Below are positions 30,470-33,089 of a stretch of 64,000 nucleotides of DNA, one piece after another. How positions within the stretch are numbered: position 1 is the stretch's first letter; each line of letters opens with the position of its first letter. The DNA lies in NCBI RefSeq assembly GCF_056746865.1, contig NZ_CM163382.1, one strand, 5' to 3'. The position numbers and the translations under genes were made by a program. The notes below the pieces were generated by a model. It saw nothing but the letters and a program-made list of their open reading frames with translations, did no database searches and had not been told where the DNA came from.

Positions 30470-33089
30470 TCCTTATTAGCTTGCTGTCTGCGTCACACTA
30501 CGACCAAACGTTATCAGATTATTTAATACATTGTTTTTAATACAATTCTGAAACAATCTGAACACCTGATTGGGTTTGAGTCCATTGCTGGCTACCCACT
30601 CAAGGTTGCTCGTAGCTGACTTACTTAAATTACCCAAACAATAGACAGTGTAAACCATTTGTGAGGTTGAGCGTGTTATATGGCTGAAATGATCATTTAA
30701 GGTAAATATGATAGTTCTGAAATGGCGGGATAAATCCTCCTGTAGAGGTTAAGAGCATCTGCAAGAAGCCAGTTTCACATTTATAACGCGTGATAAATGA
30801 ACGCGGTTATTGTCTAATCATTACAGAATTTTTCACATGCAATAAGAGATCCTGCGATTAAGATGATTGCTAAAATTACATTGTATTTTTGAAAATGAGC
30901 GAAATTTGATAGTCCCAACTTTGACTTTTGATAATATTATATATGCTACAGTTGTGGGTAAAGAATTTAAGCTAATGAGTTTGAGTGAAGAATAAATCAA
31001 ACTGTATCAGTATTTCGTTAATTAATATGAGTATAAATGCGTTGTGCTTTTATAATAATAAAGCACGAGGAGTTCAGTGGAATATCTTTTCCCTTGGGTG
31101 ATTTTTAATATGATAAACAATATATCTGATCAAGCATCATCATTTCCAGGCACACAACTGAATCAAAGTGATAATTTCCTCGATTCACTGAGGGAATTTT
31201 TCGCGATATTAAATTCCAGTCGTAAGGGTGAGTTGTCTACATGGGACACCATCTACTTGCATCTGATATTAGCAATAAATGCTGATAGTGATCTCATAAA
31301 AAATGATGAGTTGCTAGCGGAAAATATTCCATCAGCGAATTATCAATTTAATATATTTTTTAGTAATGCTTTCGAGATTGATGTTAAAAAATATCTTGGC
31401 AAATCAGAAGATAACGAAGTTGAAATAAAAGTGGGTAATGAAAGAATTACCATTGGAATACGTAATATATCGAATGGGAAACTTGAAAGACAAAAATTTC
31501 TTTTCCCACTGGACTATGAGAATAAATTACAACATCAATTAGACAAGTATTTTACGATTGAATCGCACCCATTATTATACAGGCATACTATGGGTAGTAA
31601 GATTGCGAATGTGATTTTTGAAAAATTATACAGTCGTATTGACTTTAACAAAGAGCAATATATATCCTTTATAAAGGATGCGTTTATTCATTTTTATGAT
31701 TATAGCAGGCGATATGCAATTAGTGAGAATATCGCAAAAGACGCTGTAACAAACAATATCGCATTGATGAGCACTTTTTATGACAGTGATAATACGTCAG
31801 GTGAGGTTTTAAATAATGATTTTACAGAAGAAGAGTCATTTGAAACTGCGTTAGATGTAGAGCATGCAATAGTGCTTGGATTTGCTGATGATAATTTTGA
31901 AACAAAACCTGTTCATTATCAGGATTTATTAACACGATTTAGTGCCTTTCAAGATACCGTGTTTAATTTGTTTCCTGAAATGCACTCTTCGCATTACAAC
32001 GATATTTGTAGCGTAAGTGTGGATATGACAAAGGGAACGCAATGCATGATCCACTTGATGGTGAATGAAGAAGTTTTCATGTCGTTGCCTGTTCCAGTTG
32101 CCACGATGGTACGTGAAGATGCAACTAATTTAGTCAATCTTAAAACACTACTCAATGATGGTTGCTTTATTAAATATAGTCATTTTAATGACGTGGCATT
32201 AATAAAGCAAAACATAAGTAATCTCTATTTATCACACACTGTTGTGAATGAAAGCATATTGAAAAAATGTTGTTTTGAAAACGGCAGTTTAGGTGATGTT
32301 AAAATAACAAATAGCAATATAGTAAACAATGTATTCAAAAACGTTTCGTTTAGAACTGTTAAAATTAACAATGTGAATACTCATTCTTTAAAATTTATTA
32401 ATTGCCATTTTTTTAATGTTGATATGATAAGAGTTAATTTCAGCAAATGTCTTTTTCATGACTGTAGTATGCATGGTGTCAAGATAAAACCATGGTTGCC
32501 AGTAAAATGGACAAAAGAATTAATAAATGATTATTTGTATGGCTGTTTACTATCTCTGTACTCTATCTGTGCAAGAGATATATATAATATGATCGCCGGT
32601 AATAACGTGAAGGTTGCTGCGGATGCTTTCCTTGAAATACTTTATTCTCTTAAAAATAAATATTGTATTAAACTATTAAGCGCTCAGGACCGGGCGTTTA
32701 TATACGAATTTGCAAGAATGATCTTCGCTTATATTAATGACAAAAGCATTGAGATCTTATTACTTTCTTGTTTTGCGGCGGCTGACCAAAAAGCAATCCA
32801 GAGATATATACCTCAGGCGCAAGATGGGGAAGACTTTAGGAATCATTTACAATATAAGTTGACTCTTCCCACTCATTAATGTTGCTGGTACTACATAATA
32901 CGACAGGTAAGCGGTGCTCCATAATAAAACTAATATCGGGTTATGCAACGGATAATTGTACAGGCTTATGTACCTGTTTTTGACACAATGAGATGATTTC
33001 CTAAACTGATCAAAACCTTCTTCCCAACATGGCATATCAGTCCGATAATGCTTTAGAGATCGAAGGCTTAACAAACAAGGAGATCGATC
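30470..33089. mobile_element. Low-GC island (about 2.6 kb) inserted between ybjP and ybjQ; no integrase, transposase or flanking repeats seen
   Basis: Sharp drop in GC versus flanking core genes; ybjP and ybjQ are adjacent in K-12 as I recall; contains a single large ORF. Confidence 0.6.
31077..32879 (+). CDS. Pentapeptide-repeat protein (600 aa), possible PipB2/EspX-like type III effector homolog
   Basis: Residues about 400-475 form tandem pentapeptide repeats (NGSLGDVKITNSNIVNNVFKNVSFRTVKINNVNTHSLKFINCHFFNVDMIRVNFSKCLFHDCSMHGVKIK); polar Ser/Asn-rich N-terminus; GTG start with GAGGAG ribosome-binding site (alternative ATG at 31110); low-GC codon usage. Confidence 0.6.
   Translation: MEYLFPWVIFNMINNISDQASSFPGTQLNQSDNFLDSLREFFAILNSSRKGELSTWDTIYLHLILAINADSDLIKNDELLAENIPSANYQFNIFFSNAFEIDVKKYLGKSEDNEVEIKVGNERITIGIRNISNGKLERQKFLFPLDYENKLQHQLDKYFTIESHPLLYRHTMGSKIANVIFEKLYSRIDFNKEQYISFIKDAFIHFYDYSRRYAISENIAKDAVTNNIALMSTFYDSDNTSGEVLNNDFTEEESFETALDVEHAIVLGFADDNFETKPVHYQDLLTRFSAFQDTVFNLFPEMHSSHYNDICSVSVDMTKGTQCMIHLMVNEEVFMSLPVPVATMVREDATNLVNLKTLLNDGCFIKYSHFNDVALIKQNISNLYLSHTVVNESILKKCCFENGSLGDVKITNSNIVNNVFKNVSFRTVKINNVNTHSLKFINCHFFNVDMIRVNFSKCLFHDCSMHGVKIKPWLPVKWTKELINDYLYGCLLSLYSICARDIYNMIAGNNVKVAADAFLEILYSLKNKYCIKLLSAQDRAFIYEFARMIFAYINDKSIEILLLSCFAAADQKAIQRYIPQAQDGEDFRNHLQYKLTLPTH

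Follow-up and report, generated by a model that had tools for sequence, protein, structure and literature searches.

We investigated an AT-rich stretch of DNA (positions 30470-31076) in a 64,000-nucleotide window of Escherichia coli (contig NZ_CM163382.1, RefSeq assembly GCF_056746865.1), which spans the artJ-artMQIP-ybjP / ybjQ-amiD-ybjS region. All positions below are those of this window. The stretch lies between the lipoprotein gene ybjP (29947-30462, minus strand), which was identified as an annotated open reading frame (ORF), and an island gene on the plus strand (31110-32879) that encodes an orphan protein of 589 aa. The gene ybjQ starts further along at 33090. YbjP was recently described as a lipoprotein partner of TolC in efflux pumps (10.1101/2025.03.19.644130). 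Alignment with empty sites delimits an AT-rich islet of 2,548 bp (30481-33028; GC 33.2%) that holds the island gene. The spacer between ybjP and the island gene separates two divergently oriented genes, so that it is a divergent intergenic region and not just a leader, a point overlooked in the first-pass annotation, which had been made from the sequence alone. Our preferred interpretation, to which we give a probability of about 60%, is that the stretch is a non-coding divergent control region, lying at the left end of an islet of 2.55 kb that was inserted into the ybjP-ybjQ promoter region.

Composition and extent of the AT-rich spacer

The 607 bp of positions 30470-31076 are 65.9% AT (34.1% GC), as against a mean of 48.6% AT (sd 3.8, maximum 61.8%) over all 607-bp windows outside the island, and TpA steps have a frequency of 0.096 compared with 0.045. 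The combined AT and TpA enrichment stands about 4.5 sd above the remaining window. Thus, the AT enrichment noticed in the first-pass annotation is real and far beyond chance. The further claim that nothing else in the window comes near this composition does not hold, since the adjoining island ORF (GC 32.5%, 67.5% AT) exceeds the stretch in AT content and contains the lowest-GC 607-bp window (28.7%), at 32166. The low-GC block is a single unit that comprises the entire islet. After the islet, the highest AT content among 600-bp bins of the window is seen at two local GC dips, 22201-22800 and 44401-45000 (GC 40.7% and 41.2%).

The spacer itself extends from 30463, directly after the ybjP start codon (30460-30462), to 31109 rather than 31076, the island gene starting at ATG 31110. 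It thus measures 647 bp with a GC content of 33.8%, and its composition is uneven, with 38% GC in 30463-30780 and about 30% (29.8%, i.e. 70% AT) in 30781-31109. In none of the 1,128 E. coli records containing the stretch is a feature annotated under it, and the spacer ORFs have no match in Pfam, NCBIfam or PADLOC. The description of the region between the ybjP start and 31076 as non-coding is therefore upheld by homology, while its limits have to be moved as above. Its placement before an acquired gene also stands, the stretch being lineage-specific AT-rich DNA upstream of the island gene. As a leader sequence it is routine, an AT-rich non-coding region before an orphan acquired gene, and it is best described as the ordinary AT-rich regulatory spacer of a small orphan islet.

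Loss of the ancestral ybjP promoter

Aligned to empty-site and K-12 spacers, the islet has its junctions at 30480/30481 and 33028/33029, and it takes the place of 46 bp of the 125-bp ancestral ybjP-ybjQ spacer. The native sequence that was kept amounts to 18 nt beside ybjP (30463-30480, minus strand), with the Shine-Dalgarno region AAGGAAATGATT, and 61 nt beside ybjQ (33029-33089, plus strand), with a ribosome-binding site and a GATAAT element; the latter segment begins inside the former ybjP -10 hexamer. In K-12, ybjP has a sigma-S-dependent promoter, P1 (PMC2760140), whose start site was mapped to -56 by primer extension (Lacour and Landini 2004, as tabulated in PMC2760140) and to -55 by DMTSS (PMC2760140). 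The K-12 -10 hexamer, TATTAT preceded by C, lies at positions 62-67 of the spacer when these are numbered from the ybjP ATG. The right islet junction cuts inside this hexamer, so that half of the -10 element is lost, and the deleted 46 bp include the published start site and everything from it to position 19. The junctions on the K-12 sequence, combined with the published start site, establish that the insertion deleted the ancestral sigma-S promoter of ybjP.

In most carriers ybjP is nevertheless an intact gene with only 18 native nt upstream, and its transcription must therefore begin in islet DNA. Neither the deletion of the ancestral promoter nor the strong constraint on the ybjP-proximal half, deduced below from allele comparisons, had been noticed in the first-pass annotation. 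Strain IAI39 has an internal stop in ybjP. At the other end of the gene, a sub-threshold match to the Rfam family CRISPR-DR53 (25.9 bits against a gathering threshold of 45) occurs at 29881-29917 in the artP-ybjP gap. Overlapping with this match is a sequence that resembles a hairpin, ATGTCGGCATTCC...GAAATGCCGGACA, immediately 3' of the ybjP stop; this sequence probably represents a terminator or a REP-like hairpin.

A conserved and a variable half of the spacer

Two allele types of the islet exist. Type A, to which the window belongs, is represented by about 1,100 genomes and type B by about 20, such as R32_14_1F. Identity between the types is about 82% across the islet, as opposed to about 97-99% in ybjP and ybjQ on either side. 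The divergence is distributed unequally over the spacer. The ybjP-proximal half (30481-30780, GC about 38%) has 26 differences at 298 sites between the types (8.7%; measured from 30483) and only four (1.3%) between the window and O157. This is far below the divergence at synonymous sites of the island ORF, where 140 of 346 sites (40%) differ between A and B (Fisher P = 3e-21). The ORF-proximal half (30781-31109, plus strand), the most AT-rich part of the spacer, differs between the types at 71 of 324 sites (21.9%), with 16 additional gap columns, and by 8.2% between the window and O157. It also contains an indel hotspot at 30966/30967, where O157, Z1323 and the type-B alleles have a 9-bp insertion, TATAATCTT; the 60 bp that include this position are more variable than any other part of the islet. 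Within type A alone, the left half is again the least variable part of the islet. Judged by these comparisons, the ybjP-proximal half is under strong constraint.

Candidate promoters and a model of divergent control

We infer all promoter positions in the spacer from consensus matches. A fully conserved core at 30684-30714 has promoter-like hexamers on both strands, CTGAAA-17-TATGAT on the plus strand and CTATCAT (30708-30714) on the minus strand, i.e. in the direction of ybjP. The latter resembles the ancestral ybjP -10 element, which reads CTATTAT in E. coli and CTATCAT in Salmonella. The surrounding segment, 30600-30720, is 95-98% identical between types A and B. A weak but conserved candidate for a ybjP promoter, TTGTAT-16-AATAAT (30517-30545, minus strand; weight-matrix score 3.4), has a predicted start at about 30511, some 49 nt before the ybjP ATG, and is unchanged in O157 and R32. 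For the island gene, the best conserved sigma-70-like candidate is TTGATA-18-GATAAT (30906-30935, plus strand), with 10 of 12 consensus matches and both hexamers unchanged in O157 and type B. Its predicted start at about 30942 would give the island gene a 5' untranslated region (UTR) of about 168 nt. Folding and allele comparison also point to a palindrome, GTGCTTTTATAATAATAAAGCAC (31045-31067, plus strand), just upstream of a GAGGAG sequence. Diverged alleles keep its stem by means of wobble pairs or a bulge, and the palindrome could be a hairpin or an operator.

The possibility that leaders such as this one are silenced by H-NS had been raised from their length and composition. AT content and TpA frequency are well above those of the remaining window over several hundred bp, and the DNA is lineage-specific, in that 79% of E. 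coli genomes lack it, as do other Escherichia lineages and Salmonella. In E. coli, about 30-38% of strain-specific or shared segments are bound by H-NS (PMC4720273), and H-NS-bound upstream regions diverge faster (Higashi et al. 2016, PMC4720273). The H-NS ChAP-seq data of that study cover K-12, SE11 and SE15, and ybjQ is unbound in them (PMC4720273); the islet is not reported in the H-NS occupancy data that we found, which are from these three strains. From its composition, H-NS silencing of the islet is plausible.

Taken together, we propose the following model. The islet went into the compact divergent promoter region between ybjP and ybjQ and replaced part of it. In carriers, ybjP would now be transcribed from the conserved half of the spacer, which would also supply its 5' UTR, either the CTATCAT core (30708-30714) or TTGTAT-16-AATAAT (30517-30545) being a candidate for the replacement promoter. 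The island gene would be transcribed from the variable half, most probably from TTGATA-18-GATAAT (30906-30935), with a 5' UTR of about 170 nt. The AT- and TpA-rich DNA may be coated by H-NS/StpA, by which the island gene would be kept largely silent, and the variable half (30781-31109) would be the likeliest H-NS target.

Points against the model and alternative explanations

The conservation of the ybjP-proximal half might be due to a protein-coding gene. A candidate ORF of 60 codons (30476-30658, minus strand) ends 13 nt before the ybjP ATG, and a real gene for a 60-aa protein at this place, co-transcribed and possibly translationally coupled with ybjP, would explain the constraint. Of 13 alleles, 12 keep the ORF open, and a hypothetical protein is now and then annotated here. 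Its synonymous divergence between types A and B (pS 0.21) exceeds the non-synonymous divergence (pN 0.05; permutation P = 0.004), and the changes counted over the 13 alleles comprise 10 synonymous and 12 non-synonymous ones (binomial P = 0.008), both P values being uncorrected for six reading frames. On the other hand, no Shine-Dalgarno sequence precedes its ATG, the IAI39 allele contains a nonsense codon, residue 50 (T/A/V) is hypervariable, and the conservation runs 120 bp past the ORF. Among 5.8 billion proteins, the only related entries come from the same locus in E. coli and Shigella, and there is no family match. We therefore consider such a gene unlikely, while the excess of synonymous substitutions qualifies the earlier statement that the stretch contains no convincing ORF, which stands as far as homology goes.

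Several observations weigh against our model of a constrained control region. Strain 2020CK-00188 (L019) is an A/B mosaic with its breakpoint at 30610-30667, and because this breakpoint falls inside the spacer, recombination between A and B, and not selection, may partly explain the low divergence of the left half. The promoter-like sites are not above the shuffle expectation (three found, 3.9 expected), and the minus-strand candidates of the weight-matrix scan are weak. The H-NS motif prediction suggested in the first-pass annotation gave no support: the high-affinity motif TCGATAAATT, allowing at most two mismatches, has no match in 30463-31109, four matches being located in the island ORF and 81 in the whole window, where 65 are expected. 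The literature that we searched gave no transcription start, expression or H-NS occupancy data for this locus, and no start site for ECs_0949 or Z1097. Finally, the island gene is frameshifted, split or disrupted by an insertion sequence in several lineages, and its regulation may therefore not matter in those strains.

Some of these observations would also fit a spacer of inert AT-rich filler that was imported with the islet, in which case its history of recombination would be what makes it look constrained. The 2020CK-00188 mosaic documents recombination within the spacer, only two deep lineages can be compared, and the promoter-like sites are at chance level. However, ybjP is intact in most carriers with its 18 native nt, so that a promoter must be present in the islet. 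Moreover, the 26 differences in the left half are spread along the segment instead of leaving identical tracts, and the left half is the least variable part of the islet within type A. We thus regard inert filler as improbable, more so than a coding ORF.

The suggestion that the stretch might hide a small regulatory RNA found little to sustain it. A conserved non-coding block of 300 bp beside a divergent promoter region could in principle host such an RNA, and the minus strand folds with a z-score of -1.9; the 5' UTR region on the plus strand has a z-score of only -0.5. A search of Rfam 15 at E <= 1 returned only two sub-threshold matches, both outside the spacer, and neither strand contains an intrinsic terminator in 30300-31300. 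None of the 104 predicted pairs has a compensatory change (covariation term +0.04), in a comparison whose power is limited by there being only two deep lineages. A small RNA is accordingly very improbable, and a divergent control region remains our preferred reading of the spacer.

Distribution and origin of the islet

Of 5,426 complete E. coli genomes, 1,122 (about 21%) carry the islet, in a single copy and always between ybjP and ybjQ. Carriers include O157:H7 (ECs_0949/0950, Z1097), IAI39 and Shigella, and the islet of the window is 100% identical to that of strain 118UI. K-12 and Nissle 1917 are without it. Empty-site strains, K-12 included, have 125 bp between the two genes, and the other Escherichia lineages and Salmonella have a compact spacer of 125-127 bp without an islet. 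Because these outgroups all carry the compact conserved spacer, the alignments identify absence of the islet as the ancestral state and the insertion as derived. Between E. coli and Salmonella, the ancestral 125-bp spacer shows unusually high conservation, above all in CTACGATAAT...ATATCCTTTCAATAATAGCGTATCAG, which implies tightly packed divergent promoters.

The island-linked divergence does not stop at the left junction. Compared with empty-site alleles, it passes into the 5' end of ybjP and covers its first ~23 codons (30394-30462). Codons 4-8 (30439-30453), in the n-region of the signal peptide, encode RSLSL in islet-bearing alleles and SKLTM or SKLSL in every examined empty-site E. coli, other Escherichia, Citrobacter and Salmonella; the N-termini of Enterobacter homologues were also compared. 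Ten of the 15 nucleotides of these codons differ, including a double synonymous change in a Leu codon. Types A and B have a common flank on the ybjP side.

As in the first-pass annotation, no direct repeats or integrase remnant that could account for the insertion were found in searches for repeats, for plasmid and phage similarity and for end alignments. We found no tRNA at the islet. Searches for terminal direct or inverted repeats and for a target-site duplication gave only short, chance-level matches; TATCAG, present near both ends, is merely a 6-mer. The spacer ORFs have no match to an integrase or transposase family, and the islet shows no similarity to any true plasmid or phage. Three 'plasmid' matches belong to records of 0.7-4.9 Mb, which we read as mislabelled chromosomes, and the single phage match, of 46 nt, is due to chance. 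The spacer has no paralogue elsewhere in E. coli and no similarity to the rest of the window. Since the divergence reaches into ybjP and no tRNA, repeats, integrase or mobile-element homology were detected, the data suggest homologous recombination of the flanks as the means by which the islet spreads within E. coli.

The same results make it hardly credible that the spacer is a degraded junction or a pseudogene remnant of a delivering mobile element (integrase, transposase or phage), in spite of the foreign composition and sharp boundaries of the islet: besides the missing tRNA, repeats, plasmid or phage similarity and family matches, neither end of the islet gives a significant alignment to the ancestral segment that was lost (Smith-Waterman, P = 0.2 and 0.08), and the divergence extending into ybjP favours homologous recombination of the flanks over site-specific integration.

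A donor was not found either. A search of 1.8 billion protein representatives detected no full-length relative of the island protein outside one cluster, and a scan of the GTDB species genomes gave only one contig, 99% identical, in a Collinsella metagenome-assembled genome. This contig of Collinsella sp. (JAIJJM010000403.1, 2,972 bp) encodes the island protein at 99% identity, and its ybjP-proximal spacer is identical to that of the window. It is probably E. coli contamination of the Collinsella bin.

The island gene and its product

The island gene encodes pentapeptide repeats (Pfam PF13599) at residues ~363-470. Between types A and B, its ORF has a dN/dS of 0.25 (pS 0.40, dS 0.58), by which it is a real gene under purifying selection. 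PGAP annotates the gene from GTG 31077, and many alleles are flagged as pseudogenes ('frameshifted' or 'incomplete, missing C-terminus'). In the type-B alleles L019 and L020, GTG 31077 does not lie in the reading frame, yet the ORF of 589 aa that begins at ATG 31110 is intact, and the interval between the two codons (31077-31109) tolerates frameshifting indels in a T-run. Comparison of the alleles therefore identifies ATG 31110, not GTG 31077, as the conserved start. From this ATG, the ORF is intact in the window, L019, L020 and L022, and those pseudogene calls look like artefacts of the start codon or of the reference protein. The annotation can be corrected accordingly: two 'frameshifted' calls stem from the GTG start, and several 'missing C-terminus' calls were made on ORFs that are intact from the ATG.

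Real disruptions also exist. In O157:H7, the gene is split into ORFs of 413 and 136 aa (L004 3787-5593), and IS2 interrupts it in at least two strains (RIVM_C037884 and H151 are noted among the disrupted lineages). An insertion at NNK411 in the island gene was reported in a laboratory-evolved enterohaemorrhagic E. coli (PMC7486766). Our search of the literature by locus tag retrieved only incidental information, a Z1097 mutation and an expression change of ECs_0950.

The island protein forms a single cluster among the 1.8 billion representatives and is thus an orphan. It has no match in the PDB or PADLOC. A match to HalA (NCBIfam), at 24 bits against a cut-off of 250, reflects the pentapeptide repeats only. 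An AlphaFold2 model has a mean pLDDT of 43.6, which is too poor for a fold search. An identity of the gene with espX2 was considered and rejected: espX2 is ECs_0876, located between rhlE and dinG, whereas the islet corresponds to ECs_0949/0950 (Z1097), and the proteins show no similarity in BLASTP.

Downstream of the gene, the islet ends in a variable 3' arm (32880-33028, plus strand). At about 32961-32984 this arm contains a weak hairpin with a T-run behind it, and a promoter-like site in the arm, TTGACA-16-TAAACT, faces ybjQ.

Possible consequences for YbjP

Because the insertion removed the native sigma-S promoter, YbjP, the TolC partner, may be regulated differently in about 21% of E. coli, including O157:H7, IAI39 and Shigella. 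A more far-reaching proposal, which we put forward only tentatively and would not expect to hold in full, is that the islet, as an old one, rewired YbjP expression in about one-fifth of E. coli: the sigma-S promoter would have been replaced by a conserved 300-bp control region borne on the island, possibly with a translated 60-codon ORF coupled to ybjP, and maintained as two deep allele types (dS 0.58) in near-identical flanks. If this were true, the two diverged islet alleles in near-identical flanks would point to long-term maintenance or introgression.

Comparison with known spacers

The islet spacer shares several properties with upstream regions silenced by H-NS, such as that of ybdO (PMC4720273). 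It is lineage-specific, TpA-rich and of ~33% GC, and it lies before an orphan gene; its gene-proximal part diverges faster than its surroundings, as H-NS-bound upstream regions do (PMC4720273). It differs from ybdO-type regions in that the canonical nucleation motif is missing and in that half of it is unusually conserved instead of diversified.

Compared with the ancestral ybjP-ybjQ region of K-12, the spacer adjoins ybjP in the same divergent interval, and its CTATCAT core resembles the ancestral -10 element. The ancestral region consists of 125 bp, whereas 647 bp and a gene are present here. In the islet carriers, the start site and half of the -10 element are deleted, and the position of the new promoter is a predicted one.

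Another counterpart is the spacer between rhlE and espX2 in O157:H7 Sakai (L005 4609-5215), espX2 being a pentapeptide-repeat gene resembling those of type III secretion system effectors. The two spacers have no DNA similarity and the two genes no protein similarity. However, the rhlE-espX2 spacer measures 607 bp with 33.8% GC, and the islet stretch 607 bp with 34.1% GC, and both precede an AT-rich pentapeptide-repeat gene inserted between core genes.

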